Source: an archaeon (GTDB lineage: Archaea; Nanobdellota; Nanobdellia; Pacearchaeales; GW2011-AR1). From it: a DNA stretch of 64,000 bases. This document shows, piece by piece, positions 1,875 through 53,843 of this stretch. A program made the translations under genes and the position numbers. Under the pieces are notes generated by a model. That model did no database searches and was not told where the DNA came from. It worked only from the letters and a program-made list of their open reading frames with translations. Every line of letters begins with the position of its first letter. Positions within the stretch are counted from its first letter, which is position 1. The DNA lies in assembly GCA_038121585.1 (NCBI GenBank), contig JAYONY010000003.1, positions 25,866 to 89,865 on the forward strand, read 5' to 3'.

Positions 1875-2600
1875 ATGGAGATGCCAACAGAAATGCAGCA
1901 CCAGGCGATGGGATACGACCGCGCCGCAACAATGTTTTCCCCAGACGGGTTACTTCTGCAAGTAGAATATGCTGAGAAAGCAGTTCGCCTTGGAAGCAGC
2001 AGTGTAGGGCTCGTATGTAAGGATGGCGTTGTAGTTGTTGCTGACCGACGAATCAGAGATAAACTCATCGCTCCTGAGTCAGCTAATAAGATTTTTGAAA
2101 TTGATGAACACATTATTGCAACCGCAGCAGGCATCACTTCAGACGCTCGAATCCTTGTTGACAATGCACAAGTACTCGCACAACAACACCGCGTAACCTA
2201 TGATTCGCCAGTTCAGCCAGTCGATGTAATCCGAATGCTTGCAGATAAGAAACAAATGGCAACACAATACGGAGGCATGCGACCGTTTGGCATTGCACTC
2301 ATGCTAGCAGGCGTTAACGGAGGACAACCACACCTGTATGCTACTGATGTTACAGGAGGCTACCTAGCATATCGTGCTAATGCGATTGGAGAAAACGATG
2401 AGCAGATTAAGGAAAAACTCCGTAGCGACTTCAAAGACTCAATGACTGTCGATCAAGGAATAGCCTTTATCTTTGGCATTTTCAAAGAAATACTTGAAAA
2501 AAACTTTGATGTTAATCGATTTGACGTCGGCTACATCTTAAAAGAAGATCACAAACTCGTGAGAATGCACGGCGAAGCTTTGAAAAAGTATGTTAAGTAA
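1875..2600 (+). CDS. psmA: proteasome alpha subunit
   Basis: The N-terminus has YDRAATMFSPDGLLLQVEYA, the alpha-subunit signature. Length is 241 aa. Confidence 0.9.
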   Translation: MEMPTEMQHQAMGYDRAATMFSPDGLLLQVEYAEKAVRLGSSSVGLVCKDGVVVVADRRIRDKLIAPESANKIFEIDEHIIATAAGITSDARILVDNAQVLAQQHRVTYDSPVQPVDVIRMLADKKQMATQYGGMRPFGIALMLAGVNGGQPHLYATDVTGGYLAYRANAIGENDEQIKEKLRSDFKDSMTVDQGIAFIFGIFKEILEKNFDVNRFDVGYILKEDHKLVRMHGEALKKYVK

Positions 2601-7742: not shown

Positions 7743-8549
7743 ATGCGAGAGAGCCAAAAGTTAAGTCATGAGAAAAAAGTTCATGAGGACTATTATACTA
7801 CTGATCAAAACACACATTCTATGAGGTATCAATGGTACGTTAAGAAATTCTTTATGAATGTTCATTCTAAAAAAATTTTAGAAATTGGCTGTGGTGATGG
7901 AGGAGTGATTAATTTTTTAAAAGAAACTAATGAAGTACACTCAGTTGATATCTCTGCAAGTGCGGTCTCACAACTAAAGAAAAAAGGGATTCCTGCAAAA
8001 CAAGTAGACATTAGCAATGAATCACTACCCTACAAAAAAGCAACATTTGACTATGTTATAATCCTTGAAACCCTTGAACATCTTAAATCCCCCCATCACG
8101 CAATTGAGGAGATTCAAAGAGTCCTAAAAGAACGAGGAATGATGATTTGTTCAGTACCTAACCCCCGAACAGAACACCCCCTTATGTATCCTGCATTATT
8201 TACGTTTAAAAATTTTAAAAAGTACCTTGAGAACAGCGGATTTACTATTCAAACTGCAACAACGTATGGCATTTGCCCACCAATGTGGAGAGTGCTTAGA
8301 CATCGAATCACAAAAAACTGGAAAGCAGAAAAAAACAAAATTGCACCCATAACCGACTTAAAAAAAGAAGCATCACAACCCCTCCCCCTACTAACAAGAA
8401 TTGCAAGAATTGCATCAACCGATGCATTCAGCATGATAAAACCTACTTTTCTAGGCTGGAGCTTTGTATATGCAGGTATTAATTCAGACGCTCATGGAGC
8501 AAAAAAGCTCTATGAAACAATAGCAAATGAGACAAAAGGAGCATACTAG
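7743..8549 (+). CDS. class I SAM-dependent methyltransferase
   Basis: ILEIGCGDGG (motif I) and an acidic residue after beta-2 (VHSVDIS). Confidence 0.7.
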   Translation: MRESQKLSHEKKVHEDYYTTDQNTHSMRYQWYVKKFFMNVHSKKILEIGCGDGGVINFLKETNEVHSVDISASAVSQLKKKGIPAKQVDISNESLPYKKATFDYVIILETLEHLKSPHHAIEEIQRVLKERGMMICSVPNPRTEHPLMYPALFTFKNFKKYLENSGFTIQTATTYGICPPMWRVLRHRITKNWKAEKNKIAPITDLKKEASQPLPLLTRIARIASTDAFSMIKPTFLGWSFVYAGINSDAHGAKKLYETIANETKGAY

Positions 8550-9760: not shown

Positions 9761-9874
9761 TAACCTTTAAATACAGACGATTTATCGATATCCTAATGAT
9801 CTACCCTCGAGGTAGTGGTTTGCAGGTACCGGCTGAAACAACCCCGGATTCACCCCTGCGCTTATTATAATACA

Positions 9875-10816
9875 ATGGCAACAAAAACACCTGAAGAGAA
9901 AGAACTCGCTAAAGCAGAGAAAGACTTAGCTAAGGCAGTCGATGATGTAGAAGAAGCTGAAGAAGACCTTAAAGAAATTAAAAAAGACTTAGAGAAAGAC
10001 ACTACTAAGACTAAAGCAGCGACTAAAAAGAAGACTACCACTAAGAAAACAACAAAGAAAAGTTCTGAATCAAAAGAAGAAGCACCTTCTAAAGAAGACA
10101 AATTAGCAGCACTTAAAGCTAAAGCAGCAGCACTCGCTGGTAAAGTAGACGATGCTGAAGAAATTGAATCTAAGAAACTTAAGGAAAGTGTTAAAGGAGA
10201 AAAAATTGAGGAAGGAGATACACTCGTACCAATTGAAGACTATCTTAAAGCAAGCATTCATTTAGGAACACGAGTTATTACACCACACATGCGACAGTTC
10301 GTATACCGACGACGAGCTGACGGACTCGCAGTTTTTAACACTGCAATGTTTGATGATAAGATTAAGGAAGGAGCAAAGTACTTATCACAATTTGCACCAG
10401 AACAGATTATTGTTGCATGTAAGCGAGAAGCTGGTTGGAAAGCAGTGAAGAAATTCGCAAACACATTCGGGATTAAAACCTACACTAAGAAATATCCTGC
10501 AGGTGCAATCACTAACCCTAACCTTGACGTGTTCGTTGAACCAGACTGTATCATGATCACTGACCCGTGGATTGACAAGAACATACTCAAAGATGCGAAC
10601 CGTGTAAAAATCAAAGTAGCAAGTATTTGTGATACAAACAACTATACATTCGGTATTGACCAGATAATTCCAGGAAACAATAAAAGTTACAAAAGTATCG
10701 GTATGATTTATTACCTCTTAACAAAGCTTTATGCTGAATACCGCAATATTGAAATTGAGGAACCAAAGATTGAAGATTATGTCGAAGGCTGGGCAACACT
10801 CCAACCACCGAAGTAA
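9875..10816 (+). CDS. rps2: 30S ribosomal protein uS2 with a ~110-aa K/E/T-rich N-terminal extension
   Basis: The core has IHLGTRV...RQFVY. The low-complexity N-terminal tail begins at MATKTPEEKE. Follows eno. Confidence 0.8.
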   Translation: MATKTPEEKELAKAEKDLAKAVDDVEEAEEDLKEIKKDLEKDTTKTKAATKKKTTTKKTTKKSSESKEEAPSKEDKLAALKAKAAALAGKVDDAEEIESKKLKESVKGEKIEEGDTLVPIEDYLKASIHLGTRVITPHMRQFVYRRRADGLAVFNTAMFDDKIKEGAKYLSQFAPEQIIVACKREAGWKAVKKFANTFGIKTYTKKYPAGAITNPNLDVFVEPDCIMITDPWIDKNILKDANRVKIKVASICDTNNYTFGIDQIIPGNNKSYKSIGMIYYLLTKLYAEYRNIEIEEPKIEDYVEGWATLQPPK

Positions 10817-18363: not shown

Positions 18364-18795
18364 CTACGACCGACTCACATTTCTATTCATAAAATCTGTA
18401 ATAAGCCATATTCCATTCGCCATCGATTTGTAGGGTTTTGCTTCAACATTAGGACTGCCGAGAATCATGCGTGACACTTGCGTACCTTCTTTTTCTCGAT
18501 AGAGCGCAAGAACAGGCCTATCAAGCCCTGATGTGAACTTACCAATTTCATACCCTACCCCTAAACTTGGATTTGTTATTTCAGTAACAAGCACATTTGA
18601 TTTGAGCAGATCATCAAGATTTCTGTCATGCACTTCTTCGCTGGTTACACCCACCTCCCCTAGTGCTGAGAGATTTTTGTCACCCACATGTTCTGGACGC
18701 ACGTCACCAAATTGTTTTAGATGATTGATGAATGTGCTGTATGTTTCAACATCATCCCGACCTCCTGTAATAGAACCTGCAAAATAAATTTTCAT
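18364..18795 (-). CDS. DNPH1/Rcl-like 2'-deoxynucleoside 5'-phosphate N-hydrolase (nucleoside 2-deoxyribosyltransferase family)
   Basis: N-terminus MKIYFAGSITGGRDD matches the family motif IYFxGSIRGGR. Length 143 aa. Confidence 0.65.
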   Translation of the reverse strand: MKIYFAGSITGGRDDVETYSTFINHLKQFGDVRPEHVGDKNLSALGEVGVTSEEVHDRNLDDLLKSNVLVTEITNPSLGVGYEIGKFTSGLDRPVLALYREKEGTQVSRMILGSPNVEAKPYKSMANGIWLITDFMNRNVSRS

Positions 18796-21323: not shown

Positions 21324-22754
21324 CTAGTAAACTATTCTAGGACCATATCCCCACTTTTCAACCGCACGGGCTAACGCAGAATACGGCCGCATATCAACAT
21401 AATGCTTGAGGGGCACGCCTTTCATTACAGCATCACGAGCTTGCTCAACAGCCTCAACACCAGCAACAACACCGTCAGGATGGCCTAACAAACCTCCACC
21501 ACACTGCAAAATAATATCCTCACCAAGCTCATGCATCACAAACTCAAAATCACCAGGATGTAAGCCTCCAGAAGCAGTCATCCAAACAGGCTTAATATGC
21601 TCCCAATTCTGTCCGAGCGAAGGAATTTTTGTATCGGGCTTCGTTATTCTATCTTGCAATACATGCCGAATATATACGGCCTCCCCATAATCCTCCATTT
21701 TCGCTAAAGGCGAACCACCATGCAATGAATCGACACCAAGTAATCTAAAGAGCTTTGCTAAAAAAACCATTGAAATAGAAAACCCGTGCAAATCACCTTT
21801 CCCATGCACTCCCGGAGAATTATCCCGGGTAATGAATCCGTGCATCGCACGATGTGCGTGAATTGCAAGACCCAAGTCAGCTCGACGAACAGAATCAACA
21901 CCAGTAAACCCAGTTGTAACTACATCCATCATCATAAAAATACCTTCATTGTCCTTAATGCATTTTGCGCGATCAAACATTGTAGCAATATTTGAATGAG
22001 TGATATTTGCTAAGTAGAATTTTTTATTACCTGTGCGATGATGTGCTCGCTTAGCCTCATGCAAAATTTTTCTTGTTCTTGTTGTAAAATGATTAAATGA
22101 TAAGCTCGTCAAATTCTCATCATCCTTAATGCCATCATAGGTGCCATCACCTGCAGTAAACAACATCTCTGCAAGCGCTGCTTGTTCTGCATCTGAGCGA
22201 CCAATTTTTGGCTTTGGCACGGTAATGACTAACGGCCCTTTAGGTTTATTTAGCATCTTACGAATACCTGCAACCCCAAACTTAGGACCTACAAACGCAC
22301 GAACCATTTTAGGAGGGAATAGAACATCATACACGCGCATCGCAGCAACCATTTTCATACCTGCAATATTACCAACAATCCCTGCTAAAAGACCTGAAAT
22401 ATTATCCTTTTCAAATAATTCGAGCGGGTATGCAACTTTGAACATGTGATTCTTATAATCAAGGTCAAACGCTAAAGCCCTATACTTTGCAGCACGATTC
22501 ATACCCGAGCCAGGCCCGTCATATACGTTCGTCCACGTACCCGTTGACGATTCAGCAGCAACAGTAGCTGCAGCACTCTCAAATAATTTCTGTTTAGGAA
22601 TCTTATGTTTTTTAGCTTCCTTAAGCGCACTCTCACTTAATTGCACCTTCAGTAGCGTAATAATAAAATCGCTCTTACGAGGCCTCCACCCTTTTTTTGC
22701 AACATAGTCTAATTGAACAGCCATTGTTTCACCTCTCGGAATAAAAGAACTCAT
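21324..22754 (-). CDS. rbcL: ribulose-1,5-bisphosphate carboxylase large subunit, form III-like (archaeal type)
   Basis: AAESSTGTWT, GIKDDENL, IHAHRAMHG and CGGGLLGHPDG match RuBisCO large-subunit signatures. Confidence 0.85.
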   Translation of the reverse strand: MSSFIPRGETMAVQLDYVAKKGWRPRKSDFIITLLKVQLSESALKEAKKHKIPKQKLFESAAATVAAESSTGTWTNVYDGPGSGMNRAAKYRALAFDLDYKNHMFKVAYPLELFEKDNISGLLAGIVGNIAGMKMVAAMRVYDVLFPPKMVRAFVGPKFGVAGIRKMLNKPKGPLVITVPKPKIGRSDAEQAALAEMLFTAGDGTYDGIKDDENLTSLSFNHFTTRTRKILHEAKRAHHRTGNKKFYLANITHSNIATMFDRAKCIKDNEGIFMMMDVVTTGFTGVDSVRRADLGLAIHAHRAMHGFITRDNSPGVHGKGDLHGFSISMVFLAKLFRLLGVDSLHGGSPLAKMEDYGEAVYIRHVLQDRITKPDTKIPSLGQNWEHIKPVWMTASGGLHPGDFEFVMHELGEDIILQCGGGLLGHPDGVVAGVEAVEQARDAVMKGVPLKHYVDMRPYSALARAVEKWGYGPRIVY

Positions 22755-22767
22755 TCCCTATTAAACA

Positions 22768-23412
22768 TTATGTTTTAAGCAATCGATTAATATAGTCTTC
22801 TTGATCTTCAAATACGTGCGCTGAAATTGAATACGTCGTTATCGAACCACATTTTTTCTTAAGTGCCTTCGCGATATAATCCTGCAGTACTGAAACTTGA
22901 TAGACATTCGCTGGCCATCCGAAAAAAACATCATTACTACGAATAATAGTTGTTACATCAAGCATCTCGCCCTTAACATTACAATTCATCATTATCATAC
23001 CAGGCATGTCTTTCCTATCAATCATTGCATCTTTACTTGGCTCATAAAAGACAATGGTTGCCCTGCGACTCGTTGGATCATCCTTAAGGAGTGGGATAAG
23101 ATAGTCATCAATTTGATTACTCCCCGTATGATTAAAAGCTCGTGCACCATACGTATAATACAATCCAGGAATTTCTTTTTTTGTGAGCATGACTCGCTCC
23201 ATTTCCTCAAGTGGAGGATATACGAATTTTCCAGAACTATGCAGTATTCTAATAGGTTCTGCAATATCCCCTTTTGCAGGAACACGAATCGTGAGCCCGA
23301 GTACCTCCCTGCAGGCACGTCCATCAGTATCTGCAAACACAGTACCCTGCTTGCTAATATACGCTAATGCCTGTTCCCATGCATGCCGTGCTTTATTATT
23401 ATGAATTTCCAT
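22768..23412 (-). CDS. thymidylate synthase (ThyA)-like protein, divergent
   Basis: RSNDVFFGWPANVYQVSVL matches ThyA RSxDxxLGxPFNIASYALL. It is short (214 aa) and the catalytic Cys context is not canonical. Confidence 0.5.
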   Translation of the reverse strand: MEIHNNKARHAWEQALAYISKQGTVFADTDGRACREVLGLTIRVPAKGDIAEPIRILHSSGKFVYPPLEEMERVMLTKKEIPGLYYTYGARAFNHTGSNQIDDYLIPLLKDDPTSRRATIVFYEPSKDAMIDRKDMPGMIMMNCNVKGEMLDVTTIIRSNDVFFGWPANVYQVSVLQDYIAKALKKKCGSITTYSISAHVFEDQEDYINRLLKT

Positions 23413-28778: not shown

Positions 28779-29639
28779 ATGATAGACTTACAAAAAATCA
28801 AAGCGAATAAAACAACTGCAGAACTCCTTGAGTTTGGCCTGATAAATATTGACAAGCCAACTGGACCGACATCATTTTGGACATCCCAGTTTGTGAAAAA
28901 ACAACTAGGGCTCAAAAAAACAGCACATTTAGGAACGCTTGACCCAATGGTAACAGGCGTTTTACCAGTAGCCTTGGGACGTGCTTGTCGCTTGAATGAA
29001 TACTTCATGCACCGAGACAAAGTCTATGTAGGCATTATGAGAATTCATGAAGACATTGATGAAAACGTACTCAAAGAAAAAATGCAAGCATTTCTAGGGA
29101 CAATAACTCAATTACCCCCCGTGCGTGCACGTGTTAAACGAGCGAATCGTCAGCGAACCATTAACAAATTTGAACTGCTTGAAAAACAAGGTAAGGACGT
29201 ACTCTTTATTTCTGATGTACAAGCAGGAACCTACATTCGAAAACTTATACATGACCTTGGAGAACAAATAGGTGGAGCACATATGCTTGAGCTACGACGA
29301 ACACGAGCAGGCATGTTCACTGAACAAGAAATCTACACCATGTACGATTTCGAAAAAGCAGTGGCTGCTAATAATGAAGGAGATGAAACACTCCTGCGAG
29401 ATATGATTGTCCCAGGAGAAATTGTTTCAGAACTACTCCCAATCATTACAATTAGCAAGGAATATTTGCAAAAATGTTTGACAGGCTCACCGATTTTTGA
29501 AAGCTTTATTGTAGAACAACCAGCAGATTTAGAAGCAGGAGATAAAGTATGTGTATTCTGTGAAGCACAATTTGTTGGCTGTTACAATTTTATAGGAAAA
29601 GATGATGTAGTTGCTAAAGCAGAATTCGTCTATAATTAA
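28779..29639 (+). CDS. cbf5: H/ACA RNP tRNA/rRNA pseudouridine synthase Cbf5 (TruB family) with a C-terminal PUA domain
   Basis: INIDKPTGPTSF and HLGTLDPMVTGVLPV are TruB motifs. Start chosen at MIDLQK to avoid overlap with the upstream gene. Confidence 0.8.
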   Translation: MIDLQKIKANKTTAELLEFGLINIDKPTGPTSFWTSQFVKKQLGLKKTAHLGTLDPMVTGVLPVALGRACRLNEYFMHRDKVYVGIMRIHEDIDENVLKEKMQAFLGTITQLPPVRARVKRANRQRTINKFELLEKQGKDVLFISDVQAGTYIRKLIHDLGEQIGGAHMLELRRTRAGMFTEQEIYTMYDFEKAVAANNEGDETLLRDMIVPGEIVSELLPIITISKEYLQKCLTGSPIFESFIVEQPADLEAGDKVCVFCEAQFVGCYNFIGKDDVVAKAEFVYN

Positions 29640-30328
29640 AGAGAAGAGTTAGAATCGCCATGAGCGCGTACAATACGATCATCACTTGCAAGATAATCAA
29701 GTGCCTCAAATTGCAATTGCATAATGCGTGATTTTGAAAGCCTCATTTTCCCTGCAATTTTGTGATAGGGAATTCCTTCAAGATAATTACTCTGAATTAT
29801 ATCTGAAAGTTCAAGCGGTAAATCTTGAATTGCACTGCGCACATCCCTATTTGCCTCATGCGAAAGCGTTCTTCTTTCAGACTCTTTAGCATAGATATCA
29901 AGGTTTTCATATGCTAGCTCGCGAAGTAGCTTACCATTACTACGCCATAAGTTATTTTTTAGAGCTTGAGTAAAGTACGAAGAAAACTTTATTCCCTTTT
30001 CAGTAAATCGCTCAGCGCATTTTACTAGTGTCTCAAACCCTTCACCAATAGCATCTTCAAACGGCAATTTCCAAAACTGTTTCCAAACACGCGGAACAAG
30101 CGCATACACGAGATTGATATTCTCCCCAATGAATGAATTACGCTCTTGTAGAAACCGTTCACGAGCACCAGGCACTTCCTGCTCCACTTCTTTTGAAAGA
30201 ACACTCATTCTTTTAGCATACGCTTGCTCTTCTTTTCGAGAGAGTCCTTTACTTTCTGGATTATATCCCCCGTATTCACTTAAAACCTCGCCAATATCGA
30301 TATACATTTGAGTACATAGCTCAATCAA
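29636..30328 (-). CDS. sigma-70 family-like protein (region 2 and region 4 like), unexpected in an archaeon
   Basis: NLVYALVPRVW...FEDAIGEGFETLVKCAERFTEKGIKFSSYFTQALKNNLWR resembles sigma region 2.1-2.4. LPLELSDIIQSNYLEGIPYHKIAGKMRLSKSRIMQLQFEALDYL resembles the region 4 HTH. Confidence 0.45.
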   Translation of the reverse strand: MIELCTQMYIDIGEVLSEYGGYNPESKGLSRKEEQAYAKRMSVLSKEVEQEVPGARERFLQERNSFIGENINLVYALVPRVWKQFWKLPFEDAIGEGFETLVKCAERFTEKGIKFSSYFTQALKNNLWRSNGKLLRELAYENLDIYAKESERRTLSHEANRDVRSAIQDLPLELSDIIQSNYLEGIPYHKIAGKMRLSKSRIMQLQFEALDYLASDDRIVRAHGDSNSSL

Positions 30329-30381
30329 CCTTTAAAAAAATACGTGCAAATCATTAAAACCCTTGATTTCTCCATAGACGT

Positions 30382-33434: not shown

Positions 33435-33731
33435 TTAATTTTCTTCTTCCTCTTCTTCTGACTCTTCTTCGGAGTCATCATCCTCTGATTCTTCATCTTC
33501 TTCTGAATCGTCGGATGATTCTTCTTCAGAACCGTCATCACTGGATTCCTCTTCTTCGGATTCTTCTTCCTCAGAGGATTCAGTTTGCTCTTGATTTTCT
33601 TCTTCTTCTGGCATTCTCTTTTTTGACCCCCTTGTACTTGTGAGGGAGTCAATATTCCACCCTATAAAAAGCCTGTCTATCATCGGCCCGTGACAACGAA
33701 ACGTATAATGGGCGTATACGGCTTCTAGCAT
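33435..33731 (-). CDS. questionable ORF encoding a poly-acidic (E/D/S) tail protein
   Basis: (GAA)n-like purine-rich tract. The same tract reads as a K-rich ORF in another frame. Coding status uncertain. Confidence 0.2.
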   Translation of the reverse strand: MLEAVYAHYTFRCHGPMIDRLFIGWNIDSLTSTRGSKKRMPEEEENQEQTESSEEEESEEEESSDDGSEEESSDDSEEDEESEDDDSEEESEEEEEEN

Positions 33732-33764: not shown

Positions 33765-35294
33765 ATGGGACGACAGGAGCAGATTGTTAATGAACGTCTG
33801 CGTAAGGTTTCTGAGTTGCGAGAGAAAGGAGTGAATCCATATCCACAACGCTATGATGTAACGCATCATGCGCAAGACTTACAGAAAAAACACGCAAAAC
33901 TCAAAGCAGGAACTGCTGCAAAACAAACTGTTTCTATCGCAGGACGAGTTATGACCTATCGTGATTTTGGTAAAATCGCATTTGGCGTACTACAAGATAG
34001 CTCAGGCACTATTCAAATCACGTTACAAAAAGGAAAAACATCTGAAGACCTGATGCAACTCTTCAAGAAATACGTTGACGCTGGTGACTTTGTAGGGGTA
34101 GCTGGAACGATTCATCGAACTGAACGTGGAGAATTAAGCGTTTTAGTTAAGAAAGCTGAAATTCTAACCAAGTCAATCTTACCATTACCAGAGAAATGGC
34201 ATGGGCTTCAAGAAAAAGAAGAGCGATACAGAAAAAGATATCTTGATTTAATTATGGACAGTGATGCACGGAAGCGATTTGCAACTCGAAGTACGATTAT
34301 CAGTTCACTACGAGCGCTCCTCATTGATGAAAACTTCTTAGAAGTAGAAACTCCAACACTCCAATCAGTGTACGGAGGAGCTTCAGCAACACCATTCACT
34401 ACTCATCTTAATGCTCTTGATATCGACTTATTCCTCTCAATCTCCCCAGAACTCTATTTGAAACGACTTATCGTTGGAGGATATGATCGAGTATTCACCA
34501 TCTGTAAAAACTTTAGAAATGAGGGAATTGATCGTGAGCACAATCCTGAATTTACCATGATGGAATATTATGCAGCATACAAAACGTACGAGTACCACAT
34601 GGAATTCACTGAAAAACTCTTTACTAAACTCAAGAAAGCACTCAAGACAGGCGAAACCATAGAATATTACGGTCAGAAGATCAGCCTCAAAACCCCTTTC
34701 AAACGAATCACCTTCCAAAAACTCATGCTCGAACAAACAGGGATTGATATCAACAAAGAATCGACATTCGATACACTCGCAAAAGCTATCAAAAGTAAAA
34801 AACTCAAAGGAGTAGATATTGCAGGATGCAAGCACTACGGAGCACTTCTTGACGAATTATACAAACGAATCGTACGACCAAACATTATCCAACCAACATT
34901 CCTCACGCACTATCCAGTAGAGATGATCGCACTCGCAAAACGAAATGAAGATGACAAATCAAAGATTAACAGTGTGCAACTCATCATTAACGGCGCAGAA
35001 ATAATGAAAGCCTACGATGAATTAAATGATCCAATCGACCAAGAAAACAGATTACGAGAACAACAAGAACACCTCGCAGCAGGTGATGATGAAGCAATGC
35101 CTATGGACGAAGACTTTATTACCGCGCTCAAACATGGGATGCCGCCAACAGCAGGGTACGGAATGGGTATTGATCGACTCACAATGCTCTTTACAGGACA
35201 AGACTCAATACGAGACGTTATCCTCTTTCCATTCATGCGTCCAGAAACACATTCGAAACATTCGAACAAAAAAGTAAAAGGAGGTACAAAATAA
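33765..35294 (+). CDS. lysS: lysyl-tRNA synthetase, class II
   Basis: N-terminal OB-fold anticodon-binding region. FRNEGIDREHNPEFTMMEYY is class II motif 2. GMGIDRL is motif 3. Confidence 0.9.
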   Translation: MGRQEQIVNERLRKVSELREKGVNPYPQRYDVTHHAQDLQKKHAKLKAGTAAKQTVSIAGRVMTYRDFGKIAFGVLQDSSGTIQITLQKGKTSEDLMQLFKKYVDAGDFVGVAGTIHRTERGELSVLVKKAEILTKSILPLPEKWHGLQEKEERYRKRYLDLIMDSDARKRFATRSTIISSLRALLIDENFLEVETPTLQSVYGGASATPFTTHLNALDIDLFLSISPELYLKRLIVGGYDRVFTICKNFRNEGIDREHNPEFTMMEYYAAYKTYEYHMEFTEKLFTKLKKALKTGETIEYYGQKISLKTPFKRITFQKLMLEQTGIDINKESTFDTLAKAIKSKKLKGVDIAGCKHYGALLDELYKRIVRPNIIQPTFLTHYPVEMIALAKRNEDDKSKINSVQLIINGAEIMKAYDELNDPIDQENRLREQQEHLAAGDDEAMPMDEDFITALKHGMPPTAGYGMGIDRLTMLFTGQDSIRDVILFPFMRPETHSKHSNKKVKGGTK

Positions 35295-36527: not shown

Positions 36528-36573
36528 ATTAATTTCTTGATTTTGCATGACAGATGTAAGGGGGCAACCCACC

Positions 36574-37275
36574 ATGAAGAAGCAGATTTTAGTTGCATTA
36601 GGCGTAGTTGCATTACTCGCACTCATACTCGTGCCACTTGGCATTGCACAGTTTGGAAAAACTCCAAGCACGATTGCTACAACAACAGAAGATGCTGCAG
36701 TACAAACTACAGGAGGTAGTTCACAATCAGTATTTGATGACTCACGCAGCAATTCAGTACTTGAAAACGTACTTGATAGCACAACGAATGTAGATGCTGA
36801 TGAAGCAGATGCTATCGCACAAGCACTCTTCGAAGGAACAACAGATCGTATCGAACAAGCTATTGAAGATGGCGTTCTCGTCTGGAAGGTACGTATCACT
36901 GCTGATGGACAAGAAGCTAATGTACGCATTGATGCAGACACTGGCGAAATTGTACGATACCGTGTTGAAGATGCTATTGGTTCAGAATTTGAATTTCGAG
37001 ACGATTCATTCGATGATAGTTTTGATGACTCATTAGACGACAATAGCAACGATGGCGCCTTAGAGTCAGTTGTTGACAGTACAACACCTATCAGCTCTGA
37101 TGAAGCAATTAGTATTGCACTCGCAGAGTTTGAGGGGACAGTCGACCGAGTAGAGCAAGAGTTCGAAGACGGCATCCTTGTCTGGAATGTACGTATTGAC
37201 AGATCAGGAGACGTTGAAGCAGACATTCGTATTGACGCACAAACAGGCGACATTGTACGATTTCGAATCAAGTAA
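36574..37275 (+). CDS. secreted protein with two PepSY domains
   Basis: Signal peptide. Two repeats of ...DEAxxIALxxFEGTxDRxEQExEDGxLVWxVRIxxxGxxAxxRIDAxTGxIVRxR. Confidence 0.6.
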   Translation: MKKQILVALGVVALLALILVPLGIAQFGKTPSTIATTTEDAAVQTTGGSSQSVFDDSRSNSVLENVLDSTTNVDADEADAIAQALFEGTTDRIEQAIEDGVLVWKVRITADGQEANVRIDADTGEIVRYRVEDAIGSEFEFRDDSFDDSFDDSLDDNSNDGALESVVDSTTPISSDEAISIALAEFEGTVDRVEQEFEDGILVWNVRIDRSGDVEADIRIDAQTGDIVRFRIK

Positions 37276-37452: not shown

Positions 37453-38673
37453 ATGACACAACGAAACAGAACACTCGGCGTGATTGCGATACTCGCACTC
37501 CTACTTGGAAGTGTATTTTCCGTAGGAATTGCTAGTGCCGCATCAGGTAAAGGCAAATTCGGTACTGACAATGATGACAATGACTTTGAAGAAGATGATT
37601 TTGAAACAAACAATTTCTTTTCAGCTCGCGAACCAATCCCAGTAACTGATTTTGATGATAAAGACGTGGAAAAAGGTGACGTGAATGAAGACGAATCAGT
37701 CGACATCTTAGACTTCACCATGCTCTCCCACTTCGTTACTGGTAGTCGTAACTCAATAAACAATGAAGTAGCAGCTGACTTTGACGATGATGGATTTATC
37801 ACTTGGTACGATGTTGTAAAACTCGGTAATTACTTGTTTATGAATAATGATGTAGTGCTCTTAGGAGATGCTAATGATGACGGCAACGTTGACATAGCAG
37901 ACATTGCAGTACTCGGACAGTATGTGAATAAACGCCATATAATGGTTGACTTAGAAAACGCTGACTATAACGAGGATGGTACCATAGACAATGCTGACCG
38001 AATCGCATTACAAGACTACTTATTTGGTGAAGACGGCCCTATCTCAAAACGATTTGAGGACAAAGCACGAGTACGAGTACAAGATGTTACGAAAGTTTTG
38101 AACAGCATCCGTGAACACGACAGTGAAGGATTTAGTTTCCCAGTCATCCAATATACTGGCTACAGTGATGACCATGACGGCATGAAGTTTGTACTTTTTG
38201 AAAAACGAAGTACGAGCGACCCAACCGCTGAAGATATTATTGTAACAGACCGTTACTTTTCAGGAACTATTGGTCTTGCTAACGGTGTACGCTATTCACT
38301 CGAAGGCGACGCACTAGATGCGCTAAACGTATTTGCACAAGACGATACAGCAAACGCTGCAGGAACAGTAGCTGTTGACTTCGAAGATGAAGTACTGAGC
38401 ATAATCATTGATAGTGAAGAAACACGGTACTCATTAGACGATGTTGATCGGAAAGCAATTAAAACACAAGGTATTGGAGCAGTTATTGCACCTATTGCTA
38501 AGAGCCAAAACTCAGGCAAAGGTAACAATGACCTCTCTGTCCGCATTCGCGAACGAGTAGATGATGACACTGGCGAAACACAGCTTGAAATTAAAGGCAA
38601 AGGACTTGACACTAGTCAAGGCCAAAGCTTTTGGAAGCGACTCGTATCGTGGTTTAGATTCCAACGAAACTAA
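37453..38673 (+). CDS. secreted protein with four dockerin-like (EF-hand-like Ca-binding) repeats and a C-terminal domain shared with the next gene
   Basis: Signal peptide. Repeats GDVNEDESVDILDFTML, ADFDDDGFITWYDVVKL, GDANDDGNVDIADIAVL and ADYNEDGTIDNADRIAL. The C-terminal domain YTGYSDDHDGMKFVLFEKRS... is paralogous to 38809-39780. Confidence 0.6.
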   Translation: MTQRNRTLGVIAILALLLGSVFSVGIASAASGKGKFGTDNDDNDFEEDDFETNNFFSAREPIPVTDFDDKDVEKGDVNEDESVDILDFTMLSHFVTGSRNSINNEVAADFDDDGFITWYDVVKLGNYLFMNNDVVLLGDANDDGNVDIADIAVLGQYVNKRHIMVDLENADYNEDGTIDNADRIALQDYLFGEDGPISKRFEDKARVRVQDVTKVLNSIREHDSEGFSFPVIQYTGYSDDHDGMKFVLFEKRSTSDPTAEDIIVTDRYFSGTIGLANGVRYSLEGDALDALNVFAQDDTANAAGTVAVDFEDEVLSIIIDSEETRYSLDDVDRKAIKTQGIGAVIAPIAKSQNSGKGNNDLSVRIRERVDDDTGETQLEIKGKGLDTSQGQSFWKRLVSWFRFQRN

Positions 38674-39938: not shown

Positions 39939-42482
39939 GTGTTAACAATACACGAAAAACGACTAGCAATAGTAGCTTCAATATGCGCAATAGTAATAGT
40001 CGGAACAGTCTTAGGTGCAAATAGTGCGACAGCACCAGACCTAGCACCACGTTACGATGCAAAATCGCAAGACACACTCTCTAAATTTGAGAGAAGTAAA
40101 GGCACTGCGGGAGATGTTAACAATGACGGACGATTTGATATTGCAGACCCACGAGATCTTGCAGCACACTTGAGCGGAATAGGCAAGGCAACTAATTATG
40201 AAAACGGCGACTTTAATACTGACCGAGCAATTGACGGACGAGACGTTCGTGACATGCTTATCGCTCTTGAACGAGTCTACTTGTCTAATACCCTTGAACC
40301 AGGATTAGAACAGGAAATCGTCTATCTTCAAGGCACAGGCATCCAACCAATGCCATGGGAATGTAATGGACCATTTATTCGAGGTGATGCAAACGATGAC
40401 GGTACAGTGAATCTTGCAGATGTAGTAACAATGCTTGATAATTTATTCGTAATTAATCCACCATACCAGCCAACACCACGAAACTGTCGGGACCAAGTAG
40501 ATGCAAACGACAATGAAGGTTATAACATAGCAGATCCTATCACCGTTGCAATCTCACTCTTCCCCATTACAGGACAACCACCAGTTAGTATTCCGGAACC
40601 AAACGTGCTTGGACATGATGAAGACGCATACGGAGCGCTAGCTTGTAATGGAGTAGATGAAGATGGCGACTGCCCAGGAGACACTAACGGAGATGGAGTA
40701 GTTTGTAGTTATGGCGATATTGGCGTTGACGAAGGAGAATGTAAAGTGCGTTATGATGCCCATATCGGAGAAAGCATTGGTACAATTGGCCCAACACTCC
40801 TTACTGAACTTGACTTTGAAGCAATACTAACATCTGGAACATTCGCTGGGTCAACAACCACACAAACAGTAGAGCTAGCGAATGCACCACTGCTATCATT
40901 CATTCACTTCAAAGATAATGACTTCTTTGATGAGGGACCAGCACTTGGGCTTGCGATAGATAATTTCGATGAACTATTCACTCATCGTATAACATTTAAC
41001 CCGCCTGCTGTCGCCACAATTGCATCAGGATTAGACGAGTTTGCTGGTGAAACACTCACCACACTAGGACGAGACCTTTTTGTAGTCTATGCAGCTTACA
41101 CTCCAAACAATTTGGTAATGGAACTTGTTGATCAAGATATTCAAGATACACTTAGCTTTGGATCAATCGGTAACTATAACCATAACGGACAAGCATTCCA
41201 AGTGCAAATCTCATTCATTTCCCCAACACAAGCCCAGTTTGTCGTTAATGGGGAAGTTACTGGCCCGCTTAATGAGCAAAATTCATGGACCCTAACAAAT
41301 GATTACACCATTGTAGTTGATGAAATAATTGGTAATGACGTAACATTTGTCCTTGGACGAAATGAATATTACATGCAAAGCAATGGAGCCGATCTAGAAA
41401 TTAACAGTATTGATGTAGATCAATTTACTGATTACAAATGGACCTCTTCATTTACTTACACTGCTACACCCACAACAATTGAGCTCTCTGAAATTGCGCT
41501 TCTTAACCGGGCCGATGATGAAGTTGTGTTTGGTTTCCCAACATGCACCCCAACAACACCCGGATGTGGAACGCCAACCTCTGGAAGTGCTACGGATTAT
41601 CCATTAATTGACGCACTAGAGTTCACAATCACAAACGGGCTTGTACCAGGCGATTATGAAGAGCTTTCCATAGTGCCTGATGGCGATGATAGTTTTACGC
41701 TAACAGCACCAGTGACTGATGGAGTAGCAAGTCTTAATTTACTTTACAAAGACTCATCTGATACGTTTGCAGGCACCGGGTTAAATCCAGGCAGTTTACT
41801 TGCTAGCTCTATGATAAACACACTCTTTGTTGATGAAGACATTCACGATTGGTTTGTTGTATCGTATAATAATCCAGCAATAGAAGTACCCGAATCTTAT
41901 GTTATGAAAATTGACAACATCGATGACAGTGATCCATTCAACCCGACAGTAACTCTTAGAAGTACCGCAGTGGGATCAAACGTACAAGTATCCCTACAAG
42001 TAGGAGAAACAGAGGATATTGGTGGGGCGGCAATAACGCTCAACTTTGCAGATGATAACACGGGAGAAATTCAACTTCAAGCGGCGAACCCTTACACTCG
42101 ATTCGATAGGCTCTATACTAAAGAAGGTTTACGTGTAGACTTACCAGTCCAGTGTTCAACCGCTGCACCCCCCATACCAGAGTGTAACTTTAGCCCTGGA
42201 ACTACATCAACATATGTACTAAACTTGAATTACGAAGCAGGTATTGCAGATACTGCAATTACGCTTGGAATAAATTCATTTGAGACTTCAGTCGTAGGGG
42301 TTGGACCGCAACCAGACTATGAAACATATGACAACACTGGTATTTATGAAGGATTTTCCCAAAGTGAAAATCCAATCAGGACATTCTATCATACGGGCTT
42401 CGATCAAGACTTTGTCGAAATTCTCTACTACTACCATGATACCTACGGTCAGATAACACTCAACGGAAGAGCTTGGATTTAA
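39939..42482 (+). CDS. large (847 aa) secreted protein with N-terminal dockerin-like repeats
   Basis: TM/signal. Repeats GDVNNDGRFDIADPRDL, GDFNTDRAIDGRDVRDML, GDANDDGTVNLADVVTML and VDANDNEGYNIADPITVA. Large beta-rich remainder. Confidence 0.55.
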   Translation: MLTIHEKRLAIVASICAIVIVGTVLGANSATAPDLAPRYDAKSQDTLSKFERSKGTAGDVNNDGRFDIADPRDLAAHLSGIGKATNYENGDFNTDRAIDGRDVRDMLIALERVYLSNTLEPGLEQEIVYLQGTGIQPMPWECNGPFIRGDANDDGTVNLADVVTMLDNLFVINPPYQPTPRNCRDQVDANDNEGYNIADPITVAISLFPITGQPPVSIPEPNVLGHDEDAYGALACNGVDEDGDCPGDTNGDGVVCSYGDIGVDEGECKVRYDAHIGESIGTIGPTLLTELDFEAILTSGTFAGSTTTQTVELANAPLLSFIHFKDNDFFDEGPALGLAIDNFDELFTHRITFNPPAVATIASGLDEFAGETLTTLGRDLFVVYAAYTPNNLVMELVDQDIQDTLSFGSIGNYNHNGQAFQVQISFISPTQAQFVVNGEVTGPLNEQNSWTLTNDYTIVVDEIIGNDVTFVLGRNEYYMQSNGADLEINSIDVDQFTDYKWTSSFTYTATPTTIELSEIALLNRADDEVVFGFPTCTPTTPGCGTPTSGSATDYPLIDALEFTITNGLVPGDYEELSIVPDGDDSFTLTAPVTDGVASLNLLYKDSSDTFAGTGLNPGSLLASSMINTLFVDEDIHDWFVVSYNNPAIEVPESYVMKIDNIDDSDPFNPTVTLRSTAVGSNVQVSLQVGETEDIGGAAITLNFADDNTGEIQLQAANPYTRFDRLYTKEGLRVDLPVQCSTAAPPIPECNFSPGTTSTYVLNLNYEAGIADTAITLGINSFETSVVGVGPQPDYETYDNTGIYEGFSQSENPIRTFYHTGFDQDFVEILYYYHDTYGQITLNGRAWI

Positions 42483-49046: not shown

Positions 49047-49781
49047 ATGAAAAAACATCATGCATTACTAATAACGGGACTATTCATGTTACTCGTACTT
49101 GCAAATACATTTATCTTTTCCCAGGCATTTACTGATTCCCGAGAAGCAGTCATTATCCTCAACGTCCTTGATGGCGATACAGTAAAACTTGAAGATGGGC
49201 GTAGTATTCGCATGCTTAACATTAATGCTGCAGAAAAAGGACGTGCTCATGCAGATGAAGCAACAACATACCTCAAACAATATGAGAACACGACAGTCTT
49301 ACTTGATGCTGCTGGAACCGGGCAGTATGGGCGAACACTCGGAAGATTATACACGCAAGATAACATATACATCAACTTAGAACTTGTTGCACAAGGACTC
49401 GTGCACGCGTATCTTGTTGATGATTCTGAAACCCGTGATTTTTCAGAAGTAGAGCAAATAGCTATTGCTCAGGGAAAAGGGCTTTGGCAACACTCCCCCC
49501 ACTACGAGTGCTTAGACGTAATGCTCAATTATGTAGAAGAATTTGTTACTCTAACCAACTATTGTCAAACAAACATGACTGATTGGACGCTCAAGGATTT
49601 ATCGACGAGAAACTATAAATTTAAGAAGAATACACCTGCTTCTTTTACACTCTATTCAGGCAATGGCATTGATACAAAAACAGAATACTATTGGGGGCGT
49701 GGAAGCGCCTGGAATGATGATGGCGACGCGATATTTATTCGTGATGCTGACGGTTTGCTTGTGTATTATGAGCAGTACTAG
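49047..49781 (+). CDS. secreted staphylococcal-nuclease-like thermonuclease (SNase) with a C-terminal lamin-tail-like domain
   Basis: Signal peptide. VLDGDTVKL...RMLNINAAE...YGRTLGRLY...NLELVAQGL matches the SNase fold. The C-terminal region resembles an LTD. Confidence 0.65.
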   Translation: MKKHHALLITGLFMLLVLANTFIFSQAFTDSREAVIILNVLDGDTVKLEDGRSIRMLNINAAEKGRAHADEATTYLKQYENTTVLLDAAGTGQYGRTLGRLYTQDNIYINLELVAQGLVHAYLVDDSETRDFSEVEQIAIAQGKGLWQHSPHYECLDVMLNYVEEFVTLTNYCQTNMTDWTLKDLSTRNYKFKKNTPASFTLYSGNGIDTKTEYYWGRGSAWNDDGDAIFIRDADGLLVYYEQY

Positions 49782-50562: not shown

Positions 50563-52056
50563 ATGAAAAGAGGGGCATTAGCATTAATTATAATCGGACT
50601 CGTTCTTGTAATGCTTGGCATGATTAGCATAGGCATAAGCCCAACAGGATACGTCGTTAGTGAAGACGTGCAAAAACAAATTGATTCTATACTTGCTACA
50701 AAAAATGTAGAGTCACGAGCAACAGTTGCAACAGCACCAACAACAGAAGGGACTGCAGTACAAGCACAAACATTACCTGAAGCAGAAGAAGAAGAAATAA
50801 TCAAGCAAATAACCGCAGTACAACGAGGAGAAACGAACATTGTTACTCGAACATTCCGTAAATTTTTCAGAAATAAACTTGATGCCGACGGTGATGGAGT
50901 AGTCGCTCTTAGTGATGCAGTACTTTTTGTGAAAGAACGTAATTATGCAGCTGCAGAACAAGTCTTTGAAACAATGTATGGTGGAGAGCCACTCGTATAC
51001 CAATTATCAACGGGGCAAGATACAACTACGTTTACAACCAAAGGCCTAAGCGGTACCTATGAACAAACATTTATTCCGCTCCAAACAAACTCCTCAGGCA
51101 ATAGCACTAACAGCACGGGCGGTAGCTCATCAAGCAGTGGCAGCAGCTCAGGTGGAGGAACACCAGGAGGACTTCCAATGCCCCCAGTATGTACAGGCAC
51201 ATTTGTAAGAGGTAATGTGAATAATGACCAACTATCTCTTATTGATATTGCAGATGTCATTTACGCACTAGAATTCTTATTCCAAACTGGAAACGCACCC
51301 CCATGCGGTGACATTGCAGACATCAATGATGATAACGTACTTGACATTAGCGACCCAGTCTACTTACTCGGATACCTCTTTGGAAATGGAGGGCAACCAT
51401 ACGAGCCATTTCCAACCACTGGCTATGACGAACAAGGAGAAGGAGCATTAACAGGATCACCATGGTCACTTTGTGATGGAATAAATAATGACGCAGCAAC
51501 TGGCGACTTACTCTGTGATGAAGGAGAAGGATGCCCAGGACCTAATGGATGTGGTATGGGCGGTGGCAATCCGACAAATAATACTAATAGCACTAACTCA
51601 ACCAACCCAACAATGCACCTCGAATGTGTCGGACTTCAATGCTTACCAGTACCAGGCGCAGGAGCAAACTTATGTGCAACAGACTTTGACTGTATGAATA
51701 CTACGAATACGAGCTTGCCAGATTTAGTTGTAGCATTTAATACAACAGTACTAAATCCAAGCACTAATAGCACTAATGGAACAGTGTTAGTAGGACTCGT
51801 AGTTACAAACGTCGGTCAGGCAAGTGCAGGACCGAGCCAAACAAGTCTTGCAATAGCACTTTCAGGATCACTTTACTCGCAAGAATCACTTGCTACACCA
51901 GCCCTCACGCCCGGAGCTTCAGCATCTCTCTTTTCAACACTCTCTTCATTCCCTGGAGGATCATATACTACTGATGCTTCCGCAGACGCAGGACAGGCAG
52001 TTGCAGAAAGTAATGAGAATAACAACGACGCAACAGGTAGCTTCATAGTACCCTAA
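50563..52056 (+). CDS. secreted protein with a dockerin-like duplicated segment and a C-terminal CARDB domain
   Basis: Signal/TM. GNVNNDQLSLIDIADVIYAL...GDIADINDDNVLDISDPVYLL is dockerin-like. The CARDB domain has LPDLVV...VTNVGQASAGP...ESNENNND at the C-terminus. Confidence 0.55.
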   Translation: MKRGALALIIIGLVLVMLGMISIGISPTGYVVSEDVQKQIDSILATKNVESRATVATAPTTEGTAVQAQTLPEAEEEEIIKQITAVQRGETNIVTRTFRKFFRNKLDADGDGVVALSDAVLFVKERNYAAAEQVFETMYGGEPLVYQLSTGQDTTTFTTKGLSGTYEQTFIPLQTNSSGNSTNSTGGSSSSSGSSSGGGTPGGLPMPPVCTGTFVRGNVNNDQLSLIDIADVIYALEFLFQTGNAPPCGDIADINDDNVLDISDPVYLLGYLFGNGGQPYEPFPTTGYDEQGEGALTGSPWSLCDGINNDAATGDLLCDEGEGCPGPNGCGMGGGNPTNNTNSTNSTNPTMHLECVGLQCLPVPGAGANLCATDFDCMNTTNTSLPDLVVAFNTTVLNPSTNSTNGTVLVGLVVTNVGQASAGPSQTSLAIALSGSLYSQESLATPALTPGASASLFSTLSSFPGGSYTTDASADAGQAVAESNENNNDATGSFIVP

Positions 52057-52087: not shown

Positions 52088-52609
52088 ATGAGTAAAAAGA
52101 TTCAGGCACGATTAATTATTGAGATTATGGGACGCCCACCAGAGCATATTGCAGAAACCCTACAAACACTCGTTGTGCGACTTGGTTCTGAAAACGGAGT
52201 GAGTATTCTTGAAAAGAGTTTTTTTGATCCTCAACCACTAGAAGATACTGATAATCTCTTTACTGCCTTCGCAGAAGTAGAAGCAGAGTTTGAGAACACA
52301 CAGTCATTCTTTGGGATTGTATTCAATTACATGCCTGCTAATGTAGAGATATTATCACCGAAAGAACTTAAGACGAGTAGTGCTGAACTCAGTGAGCTCT
52401 CAAACTTTATTTTACAACGACTCCACCAATACGATGCAATAACAAAACGTGTTGTGGGAGAACGAGATATTTTACTACGTCAAGTGAAGCACTTGCAAGG
52501 CAAAGGCCCTGGACCAGAAAACGCTACGAAAAAAGATACCCCTGCTAAAAGCACATCAAAACGTAAAGGCTCTAAGAAAAACACTAAGAAATCTTCTAAG
52601 AAGAAGTAG
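52088..52609 (+). CDS. hypothetical protein with a K-rich C-terminal tail
   Basis: 173 aa. No motif. Confidence 0.35.
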   Translation: MSKKIQARLIIEIMGRPPEHIAETLQTLVVRLGSENGVSILEKSFFDPQPLEDTDNLFTAFAEVEAEFENTQSFFGIVFNYMPANVEILSPKELKTSSAELSELSNFILQRLHQYDAITKRVVGERDILLRQVKHLQGKGPGPENATKKDTPAKSTSKRKGSKKNTKKSSKKK

Positions 52610-53843
52610 GCTTTCTTGGTGGCGGCATTGCTTCCTTACTCATTTTATTCTTTCGAGGACCATTACTCTTTGTTTTTAGGTATCTCGCAACGATAATGAT
52701 GAGAACGATTAAGACTATAGAAGCTATGAGCCACCCAATAACTACCCCGATTCCTTGCTCACCATCACCATCAAGACACTCCCCAAGACAACATTGTGAA
52801 TAATCAAGTGAAGTAACAGTCTCCCCATCACAAGTTTGTGAACCCAAGCAATCATTACCACCGAGATCTTCATGACAGAGTAATTGTGCAGTTTCTGGAG
52901 GCTCTTCCCCAGTATACTCAATACTAATTGGGACATCAACAGAAATCTCCCCGTTCGAAATTCTAATAACTTCTTGAATTGGTTGGTTAGATTCGACAGG
53001 AGTGAGCAAAACATCAACCGTTGTACCAGGAGCAATGCTTGGAATAAAGGCCGGTTGAGCAGTTAATAGTGAATCATCATATACCACAACTACATTATCT
53101 ATAGCGTCCGCGGTAGGATTATGAATGCTTAAAGTATAACTTTGTAGATTATCAATAACTACCAAACTATCAATCTGCTCAGGAACTACAGAGAAAATAA
53201 ATTCTTCAGTGATAGTTTGATTTTGTTCCGAGGTTGTATTTTGAGCTGGACCCTCACCAAGTGATTGTCCAACATATACCGGCACAGTATACGCCCCAAC
53301 AGTTACCCCCATAAACCCTATTGGAGTGCTTTCAGGAAGAGTAACATAGATATCATTCTCTCCAGGACTAATAGCCACCTCATTACCGCCAGCAGTAATA
53401 GTGCCTGGAAAGTCTTCGTAGGACGTATAGGTGAATTCTAGCACTGTGTCTGTAGCGCGAACAATCCCTGGTCGAATAGTCGCTACTGCGCTTTGATTTG
53501 TTACCCTAAATGAATCAGCAATATCCTCAAAAACAACTACTCCATTCGATACGGTTGCAACGTCGTGAACATACAACGTGTAATTGTTCTGACTACTTGG
53601 AGCAACACCCCATATAAACCATGAACTACCAAGCCGTTTCACCCCATATTCAAAAGGCACTTGCACATTATTACGCTTGAGTTCGATTTGATCAGGAGTG
53701 ATTGGTTGCAACACAGCACCTCCAATTTCAACAATCATAGTTTCTTGCTGCGCATACGTTTCAGCAAGCGTAGTTGAGAGAGCTGTTACACCACTTACTG
53801 ACATCAACACCAACACACACACAAATACTGTCCTATACATCAT
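52596..53843 (-). CDS. surface protein: signal peptide, ectodomain, Cys-rich stalk, C-terminal TM and a basic cytoplasmic tail
   Basis: SP MMYRTVFVCVLVLMSVSGVTA. Cys cluster LLCHEDLGGNDCLGSQTCDGE...CCLGEC. TM VVIGWLIASIVLIVLIIIV. KR/P-rich tail. Confidence 0.55.
   Translation of the reverse strand: MMYRTVFVCVLVLMSVSGVTALSTTLAETYAQQETMIVEIGGAVLQPITPDQIELKRNNVQVPFEYGVKRLGSSWFIWGVAPSSQNNYTLYVHDVATVSNGVVVFEDIADSFRVTNQSAVATIRPGIVRATDTVLEFTYTSYEDFPGTITAGGNEVAISPGENDIYVTLPESTPIGFMGVTVGAYTVPVYVGQSLGEGPAQNTTSEQNQTITEEFIFSVVPEQIDSLVVIDNLQSYTLSIHNPTADAIDNVVVVYDDSLLTAQPAFIPSIAPGTTVDVLLTPVESNQPIQEVIRISNGEISVDVPISIEYTGEEPPETAQLLCHEDLGGNDCLGSQTCDGETVTSLDYSQCCLGECLDGDGEQGIGVVIGWLIASIVLIVLIIIVARYLKTKSNGPRKNKMSKEAMPPPRKPTSS

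Follow-up and report, generated by a model that had tools for sequence, protein, structure and literature searches.

The stretch of DNA analysed here, 64,000 nucleotides of contig JAYONY010000003.1 (assembly GCA_038121585.1, positions 25,866 to 89,865 of the forward strand; hereafter the window), carries a gene for a protein of 223 amino acids (aa), P0001, which is, judged from its sequence and predicted fold, a genuine and highly diverged member of the sigma-70 family, with a resemblance far beyond chance. Initiation in archaea depends on TBP and TFB, of which sigma is the bacterial counterpart, and the two serve as textbook markers of archaeal and bacterial initiation. A sigma gene retained by an archaeon asks whether these systems can mix.

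A first-pass annotation of the window had matched the protein by eye to sigma region 2 and, at the C-terminus, to a region 4-like helix-turn-helix (HTH), and both matches were borne out by hmmscan. Sigma70_r2 (PF04542) scored 27.0 bits against a gathering threshold of 24, which is above threshold but marginal, and Sigma70_r4 (PF04545) scored 25.0 bits against 24.1. The third model named for that check, Sigma70_r4_2 of the ECF type (PF08281), was not significant (14 bits against 25.7), and the Pfam scan at E ≤ 10 returned no family besides these three. The NCBIfam superfamily model TIGR02937 spanned both domains with 56.9 bits (cutoff 42.9, E 1.8e-15), aligning aa 64-213 to model positions 4-161 of 165; coordinates from hmmscan (Pfam and NCBIfam) follow a 230-aa form of the protein and are 7 higher than the residue numbers of the 223-aa form used elsewhere in the text. 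An exhaustive phmmer search of 1.84e9 representative sequences gave 100 matches at E < 1e-3, all of those examined being sigma-70 family proteins, and the consensus of the family alignment shows the region 2 and region 4 motifs. Against PDB sequences, phmmer aligned aa 39-124 to region 2 of cyanobacterial SigA (alignment row klpfedaigEGfetLvkcaerFt.ekGiKFSsYftqalknnlwR), which lends support to the marginal Sigma70_r2 score.

The AlphaFold2 model built from a 97-sequence family alignment was all helical, with a pLDDT of 89.5. When it was compared with the PDB by Foldseek, all 50 of the 50 listed matches were bacterial sigma factors (sigma32, WhiG, SigA, sigmaS and sigmaE; best E 8.6e-5). A false resemblance, with P0001 a diverged TFB or a member of some other helical HTH family, could be argued from the marginal Pfam scores and from the r4 model, which is by itself unspecific: a bona fide archaeal TFB (L004:983-1927 (-), aa 265-295; L-numbers denote fetched loci) also passes Sigma70_r4, with 26.2 bits against the gathering threshold of 24.1, and the model alone therefore cannot tell sigma from TFB. 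That explanation is scarcely credible in the face of the TIGR02937 match, which covers regions 2 and 4 together, and of fold matches that were sigma factors in every listed case. The exclusion of TFB for want of a Zn ribbon and cyclin folds, already proposed in the first-pass annotation, was upheld. Neither PF08271 nor PF00382 matched, no TFB was among the listed fold matches, and hhalign of P0001 and its one close relative against the bona fide TFB gave a probability of 0.4%, with an overlap of 25 HTH columns only. Homology of sigma and TFB has been proposed by Burton and Burton (PMC4581349), and the match of TFB to the r4 model fits that proposal.

The open reading frame (ORF) of 230 aa reported earlier on the minus strand at 29636-30328 is present, starts with TTG at 30328 and contains both of the peptide stretches quoted for it. 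The in-frame ATG at 30307 is favoured as the start, on the strength of public gene calls and promoter geometry; the 223-aa product is called, in identical form, in three public assemblies. The placement of the gene between cbf5 and trmY was likewise correct, the flanking products being Cbf5/TruB (TruB_N 1.4e-21, TruB_C_2, DKCLD) and a TrmY-type protein (PF04013, 1.6e-33).

The otherwise archaeal context described for the gene was substantiated by archaeal small- and large-subunit rRNA, in a 16S-tRNA(Ala)-23S operon, and by genes for proteasome alpha, SBDS, exosome Rrp4/Rrp41/Rrp42, PCNA, the primase small subunit, S19e, L31e, Cbf5, the TrmY-type methyltransferase and RuBisCO. For the class II lysyl-tRNA synthetase (LysRS) encoded at a distance of 3.4 kb, the nearest named relatives (65-73% identity) come from metagenome-assembled genomes (MAGs) labelled 'Candidatus Pacearchaeota archaeon' or 'Nanoarchaeota archaeon'. 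Because of the rRNA operon, the archaeal gene set and these LysRS relatives, the host is assigned to the Pacearchaeota/Woesearchaeota group of DPANN archaea. The 64 kb held no gene for TBP, TFB, TFE or a subunit of RNA polymerase (RNAP), and no second sigma-like ORF or paralogue. Within the window, no bacterial-type RNAP gene was found for this archaeal host, and none has been reported for DPANN (PMC8204110).

For a bacterial-type gene on a metagenome-derived archaeal contig, an artefact of assembly or binning, in which bacterial DNA is misjoined to archaeal DNA, is the usual first suspicion. It is refuted by independent assemblies of two other samples, whose short contigs match the window at 100% identity across the cbf5|sigma junction as well as the sigma|trmY junction, and can for practical purposes be set aside. 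The gene moreover sits on a contig of 137 kb between cbf5, with which it shares 4 nt, and trmY, and its composition and promoter are native. Measured against 49 window genes, its GC content was 0.394 (z = -1.06), its GC content at third codon positions 0.29 (z = -0.84) and its synonymous-codon likelihood z = -0.70. A horizontal acquisition with an unknown role had been offered earlier as one of two options, the other being a false resemblance; with regions 2 and 4 significant, a sigma fold, TFB excluded and an archaeal host, it is the former that is supported. The suggested comparison of GC and codon usage with the neighbours revealed no foreign signature, all z values lying within the spread of the 49 genes, and the native values indicate that the acquisition is old, not recent.

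Upstream of the ATG, centred 27 nt from it, is an archaeal TATA-like box, TTTTTTTAAAGG (30340-30329). Good TATA-like 8-mers precede 35 of the window genes, with a modal position of -25 to -30 (14 genes), and the LysRS gene has an identical TTTTTAAAGG core at -26. AT-rich archaeal TATA boxes mimic bacterial -10 elements. The box of the sigma gene is at the host's modal spacing, and the gene thus appears to be wired to the host's own promoter type. This box probably drives a leaderless mRNA, and the divergent trmY may use it as well; transcription of the gene would presumably be carried out by TBP, TFB and the archaeal RNAP.

The domain layout of P0001 (Table 1) is that of a short sigma factor. 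Its N-terminus resembles region 1.2, because it is at about aa 30-40 that RpoD/SigA models and structures start to align and because L22 and E27 fall in family-conserved columns (87% and 85%); helices were predicted there at 5-11 and 24-42, and Pfam Sigma70_r1_2 gave no match. Neither Sigma70_r3 nor Sigma70_r1_1 matched P0001, consistent with the absence of the sigma3 domain and of region 1.1. The linker between the two main domains is the least conserved internal segment, and its pLDDT falls to 62. Identity between P0001 and its close relative P0002 (252 aa) was 36% in sigma2 and 39% in sigma4, as compared with 18% in the linker and 6% in the C-terminal tail.

Table 1. Coordinates of the sigma-70 family gene, its predicted domains and the adjoining sequence elements in the window
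Feature	Coordinates	Strand	Details
Archaeal TATA-like box	30331..30340	(-)	TTTTTTTAAA(GG); centred 27 nt upstream of ATG
Sigma-70 family coding sequence	29636..30307	(-)	223 aa from ATG at 30307 (P0001); ORF list and public gene calls
Region-1.2-like N-terminal segment	30182..30298	(-)	aa 4-42; clade-specific GYN motif and L..EE motif
Sigma2 domain	29933..30166	(-)	aa 48-125; regions 2.1-2.4 including EGFETLVKCAERF and KFSSYF; Sigma70_r2 27 bits
Short helical linker	29834..29932	(-)	aa 126-158, ~33 residues between r2 and r4; replaces sigma3 and region 3.2 finger
Sigma4 domain	29687..29833	(-)	aa 159-207; helix-turn-helix LSKSRIMQLQ; Sigma70_r4 25 bits
Stop-stop overlap with convergent cbf5	29636..29639		4 nt, TTAA; sequence and ORF list

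Residue conservation was scored against 95 other family members at the positions conserved in at least 50% of them, and P0001 retains about half of these positions. They include N63, L66, V67, D85, G90, L94, F101, G105, F108, S109 and Y111 in sigma2 and L163, S191, R194, Q197, A202 and L206 in sigma4, of which S191, R194 and Q197 belong to the HTH, and the residues aligned with region 2.2 are partly retained, among them D85, E89-G90, L94 and F101. The other half of the conserved positions has been lost, some through substitutions common to P0002, such as A to C97 and A to F112. When the E. coli sigma70 numbering was applied to the SigA alignment, the equivalents of F419, K426, F427 and Y430 were retained, the last three as K107, F108 and Y111. 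In the same numbering, the equivalents of R586 and Q589 in region 4.2 were retained and that of R588 was lost, and the W433/W434 pair of region 2.3 is Q114/A115 in P0001 and deleted in P0002. Alternative sigmas also vary at these positions. As this tryptophan pair is replaced in one protein and deleted in the other, it is unlikely that P0001 opens promoters in the canonical manner of a primary sigma. The pattern of conservation fits a folded, selected, DNA-binding protein that would have drifted from canonical promoter melting.

Loss on this scale also raises the question of whether the gene is a functionless relic of horizontal transfer in slow decay, a view that the extreme divergence and marginal domain scores would suit, as would its absence from most relatives and its position in a variable slot (see below). 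The reading frame of 223 codons is nevertheless intact in a small, gene-dense genome, as are the 252 codons of the relative at 32% identity, and it is in the two functional domains that conservation is strongest. Together with a well-placed native promoter and native codon usage, these points make decay improbable, and the data fit a sigma gene that would be kept under selection and driven by an archaeal promoter.

Among the 1.84e9 representatives, P0002 alone (32% identity, E 7.5e-11, full length) rose above the generic sigma background, and a profile of the P0001/P0002 pair scored more than 380 bits for the pair and at most 70 bits for all others. P0002 is encoded on a metagenome contig of 1.9 kb (L004:228-986 (+)), between an upstream tRNA-Leu and a convergent archaeal TFB gene (983-1927 (-); TFIIB repeats 5e-46 and Zn ribbon). 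The two genes lie tail-to-tail with a 4-nt TTAA overlap, the same geometry as that of the sigma gene and cbf5 in the window. Conserved synteny had been suspected, with Cbf5 as the neighbour of P0002; the neighbour is TFB instead. A TTTTTTAAAG box lies at a similar distance upstream of the P0002 ATG, and since the gene has both this TATA-like box and a TFB neighbour, the sole close relative is archaeal too.

No related locus was found in GTDB genomes (searched twice), JGI metagenome contigs or IMG/VR, and a word-indexed homologue search with P0001 and P0002 returned only the queries and one Anaerolineales sigma. A search with the degenerate pattern EGFxTLxxCAExF gave four GC-rich chance matches only. 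A link to defence systems was rejected, the MzaA and PADLOC matches covering only generic r2 or r4, far below the curated cutoff. A separate protein, P0006 (203 aa, L016:7001-7612 (+), GCA_053534875.1), has the same short layout of region 1.2, sigma2 and sigma4, with a TATA-like CCTTATATATTT box about 25 nt upstream of its ATG, and its contig also carries a gene for an HTH_10 regulator, a typically archaeal family; P0006 may be a third archaeal sigma of the short type.

The LysRS neighbourhoods of seven related genomes were compared, and the family hidden Markov model (HMM) was run over all of their ORFs. The relatives share a conserved block, TrmY-(variable)-DUF362-acylphosphatase-LysRS. Between cbf5 and trmY the slot varies in content: L014 has nothing there, L009 and L013 have a VTT-domain membrane protein, and L010 has an adenine glycosylase; at the remaining loci the region is rearranged. 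Six of the seven syntenic loci have no sigma gene. The seventh, L010, from a related Pacearchaeon whose LysRS is 72% identical, has a single sigma-like gene by the family HMM, at 7999-8541 (-) between trmY and DUF362 and overlapping the trmY 3' end. Its product is an unrelated sigma of the ECF type (TIGR02937 68.9 bits, many ECF subfamily matches) with no pairwise similarity to P0001, so that two different sigma subtypes occupy the same variable neighbourhood. Sigma genes in this group are thus patchy and heterogeneous, which suggests that they were acquired repeatedly, or diverged very fast, in a variable region and are not a core inherited factor. The TrmY-DUF362-acylphosphatase-LysRS neighbourhood appears to be an insertion hotspot. 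Other contents of variable slots were toxin-antitoxin pairs (ParE, MazE, PemK, PIN/RHH; L011 12053-12570 and 18547-19015, L012 13706-14345, L014 11720-12306) and a reverse transcriptase, RVT_1 (L015 11999-13354).

The evidence obtained directly comprises family membership, fold, an archaeal host, native composition and promoter geometry, patchy distribution and selective retention of the two DNA-recognition domains. On this basis it is tentatively suggested that P0001 is a gene-specific accessory transcription regulator and not a general initiation factor, a reading held as possible and somewhat short of probable. Long ago, the gene would have passed from bacteria or their phages into a DPANN archaeon (Pacearchaeota/Woesearchaeota group), and it would now be resident and expressed on the archaeal chromosome, where the TBP/TFB machinery would transcribe it from an ordinary TATA promoter. 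The product, with region 1.2, sigma2, a short linker and sigma4 and with neither region 1.1 nor sigma3, would recognise, through the sigma4 HTH, a specific DNA motif close to its target promoters. Sigma2 would provide a second contact, with DNA or with a protein partner such as the clamp of RNAP, and initiation driven by TBP, TFB and RNAP would thus be modulated by P0001. A general factor is excluded by the patchy distribution, and a regulator is favoured because archaea routinely use bacterial-type HTH regulators, sigma4-like ones included (PMC5413776).

Several points weigh against this proposal. The loss of about half of the family-conserved residues, and Pfam domain scores only 1-3 bits over threshold, would fit drift too. 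The alignment behind the AlphaFold2 model was made of sigma factors, so that sequence and fold are not two independent lines of evidence. When RNAP is absent, free sigma factors are usually poor DNA binders, and a stand-alone regulator is not the default for this fold; the equal conservation of sigma2 and sigma4 argues for a scaffold-bound, sigma-like mode. Finally, the family is known from two members, P0001 and P0002, which are too few for a measurement of selection.

The main rival is that P0001 is a true sigma-like factor for the archaeal RNAP, with sigma2 on the clamp coiled-coil of Rpo1 and sigma4 near the flap/wall, where it would redirect the enzyme to a dedicated class of promoters or compete with TFE/Spt5. 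The Rpo1 clamp coiled-coil corresponds structurally to the beta-prime clamp helices of bacteria and is used by TFE and Spt5. The two sigma domains are conserved as a unit and the linker is not, residues aligned with the core-binding positions of region 2.2 are retained, and the only close relative lies tail-to-tail with TFB; to our knowledge, proteins of the sigma fold otherwise work on RNAP alone. Against it, the clamp tips of archaea and bacteria are unlike in sequence, P0001 no longer has the tryptophan pair of region 2.3, most close relatives do without the gene, which therefore cannot be a core factor, and the adjacency to TFB is a single case. This RNAP-bound mode is regarded as rather unlikely. 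Similarly doubtful is the more specific proposal that P0001 is a working hybrid, a sigma fold refitted to the archaeal RNAP that would dock on the Rpo1 clamp with or against TFE/Spt5, beside TFB.

A different target, bacterial RNAP, would come into play if the archaeon, as an episymbiont, were to pass P0001 into a bacterium, be it its host or a neighbour, much as phage sigma factors reprogramme bacterial transcription. A sigma factor would act on bacterial RNAP without re-engineering, and the window encodes many surface or secreted proteins (dockerin, PepSY, CARDB, SNase). Castelle et al. have raised bacterial hosts for some DPANN as a possibility (PMC8204110). P0001 is, however, about 30% identical or less to all bacterial sigmas, which sits poorly with so conserved a target; no signal peptide or linkage to a secretion system was seen, no bacterial host is known and no phage-like relatives were found. 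An effector of this kind is considered very improbable. An origin in phage likewise received no support, the PHROG and BFVD matches being to generic sigma factors; a tblastn search of 50,697 phage records gave no sequence match, and neither did IMG/VR.

Should P0001 contact the archaeal polymerase, the two would form the first natural pairing of a sigma factor with an archaeal RNAP, which would also be relevant to the deep homology that has been proposed for sigma and TFB (PMC4581349); as a hybrid, it would give some DPANN a sigma-like layer of promoter selection atop TBP/TFB. If it is only a DNA-binding regulator, a core bacterial factor would have been demoted to an ordinary regulator after transfer. 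P0001 and its relative beside TFB form a compact, well-defined candidate for biochemistry. The phenomenon itself has been published already, and the value lies in characterising the case and not in discovery.

Several other features of the window were noted. Class II LysRS is the usual bacterial type, class I being common in archaea, and the class II enzyme encoded at 33765-35294 (+) (PF00152/PF01336; 65-73% identity in many Pacearchaeota/Nanoarchaeota MAGs) is another bacterial-type gene, stably inherited. Next to it, at 33435-33731 (-), is a 98-aa ORF with a long, acidic Ser/Glu/Asp-rich low-complexity tail, which is also a public gene call (L001 6577-6873) and to which no family was assigned. 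A RuBisCO large subunit is encoded near nucleoside 2-deoxyribosyltransferase-like and thymidylate-synthase-like genes (21324-22754 (-), 18364-18795 (-), 22768-23412 (-)), and RuBisCO was found again in the syntenic regions of relatives L009, L013 and L014. Four large ORFs of 847, 1102, 605 and 415 aa (39939-42482 (+), 59582-62890 (+), 53845-55662 (-), 52596-53843 (-)) had no Pfam match at E ≤ 1e-4 and lie near dockerin (37453-38673), PepSY (36547-37275), CARDB (50563-52056) and SNase+LTD (49047-49781) genes, which suggests a block of surface or secreted proteins. In the ribosomal protein S2 ORF at 9815-10816 (+), 333 aa from GTG, only aa 242-304 match, to the C-terminal third of the Pfam S2 model; either the true start lies elsewhere, or the N-terminal part of the protein is long and non-canonical.

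Sigma-70 genes in DPANN have been described before. Castelle et al. (2021) reported them (fam00359) and called them 'particularly prevalent in Woesearchaeota'; their study excluded mis-binning, detected no anti-sigma factors and described the mechanism as unclear (PMC8204110). P0001 is an additional, unusually diverged case; the first-pass annotation, which did report a real gene, took no account of the DPANN sigma-70 genes already published (PMC8204110). In the literature searched there was no other paper joining Pacearchaeota with sigma factors and no functional study. P0001 resembles fam00359 in being a bacterial-type sigma-70 gene on a verified Woesearchaeota/Pacearchaeota contig with no anti-sigma factor, a putative link based on shared annotation and host group. 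It has a single detectable close relative and another Pacearchaeon carries an ECF-type sigma, so the sigmas of DPANN are heterogeneous.

Among the bacterial classes, P0001 is closest in fold to the group 3 alternative sigmas (sigma32/RpoH, FliA/WhiG and SigF/SigK types), its best fold matches being 8hkc_E (sigma32) and 7lq4_A (WhiG). It shares with them an HTH of the r4 and not the r4_2 type and the lack of region 1.1. Its best subfamily HMM was FliA/WhiG, at 30 bits against a cutoff of 190, and it is far below every subfamily cutoff. In contrast to group 3, P0001 has neither sigma3 nor the region 3.2 finger, and its host has no known bacterial RNAP. Assignment to the primary sigmas (groups 1-2) was rejected, as PF04539, PF03979 and PF00140 gave no match and the RpoD/RpoS models scored 18-24 bits against cutoffs of 350-530. 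With the ECF sigmas (group 4) it has in common sigma2 and sigma4 joined by a short linker, and TIGR02937 is the common superfamily model. An ECF identity was rejected as well: Sigma70_r4_2 fails, PF07638 does not match, about 47 aa at the N-terminus of P0001 form a region-1.2-like extension alignable with RpoD/SigA models, and the gene has no anti-sigma neighbour. Phage sigmas (PHROG 351 and 1740) are sigma-70 relatives outside the standard bacterial chromosome, often short and highly diverged, and P0001 matched phrog_351 with E 9e-11 and BFVD folds with E of about 1e-5; its gene, however, lies among housekeeping genes, with no mobile-element hallmarks and no match in phage records.

The closest functional parallels are with archaeal regulators that carry a sigma4/LuxR-like HTH, namely Tfx, HTH_10/Bat and the LuxR solos (PMC5413776). 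In these proteins a sigma-region-4-like HTH serves an ordinary DNA-binding regulator, which is the functional model favoured for P0001. They lack sigma2, whereas P0001 has a full and conserved sigma2 domain.

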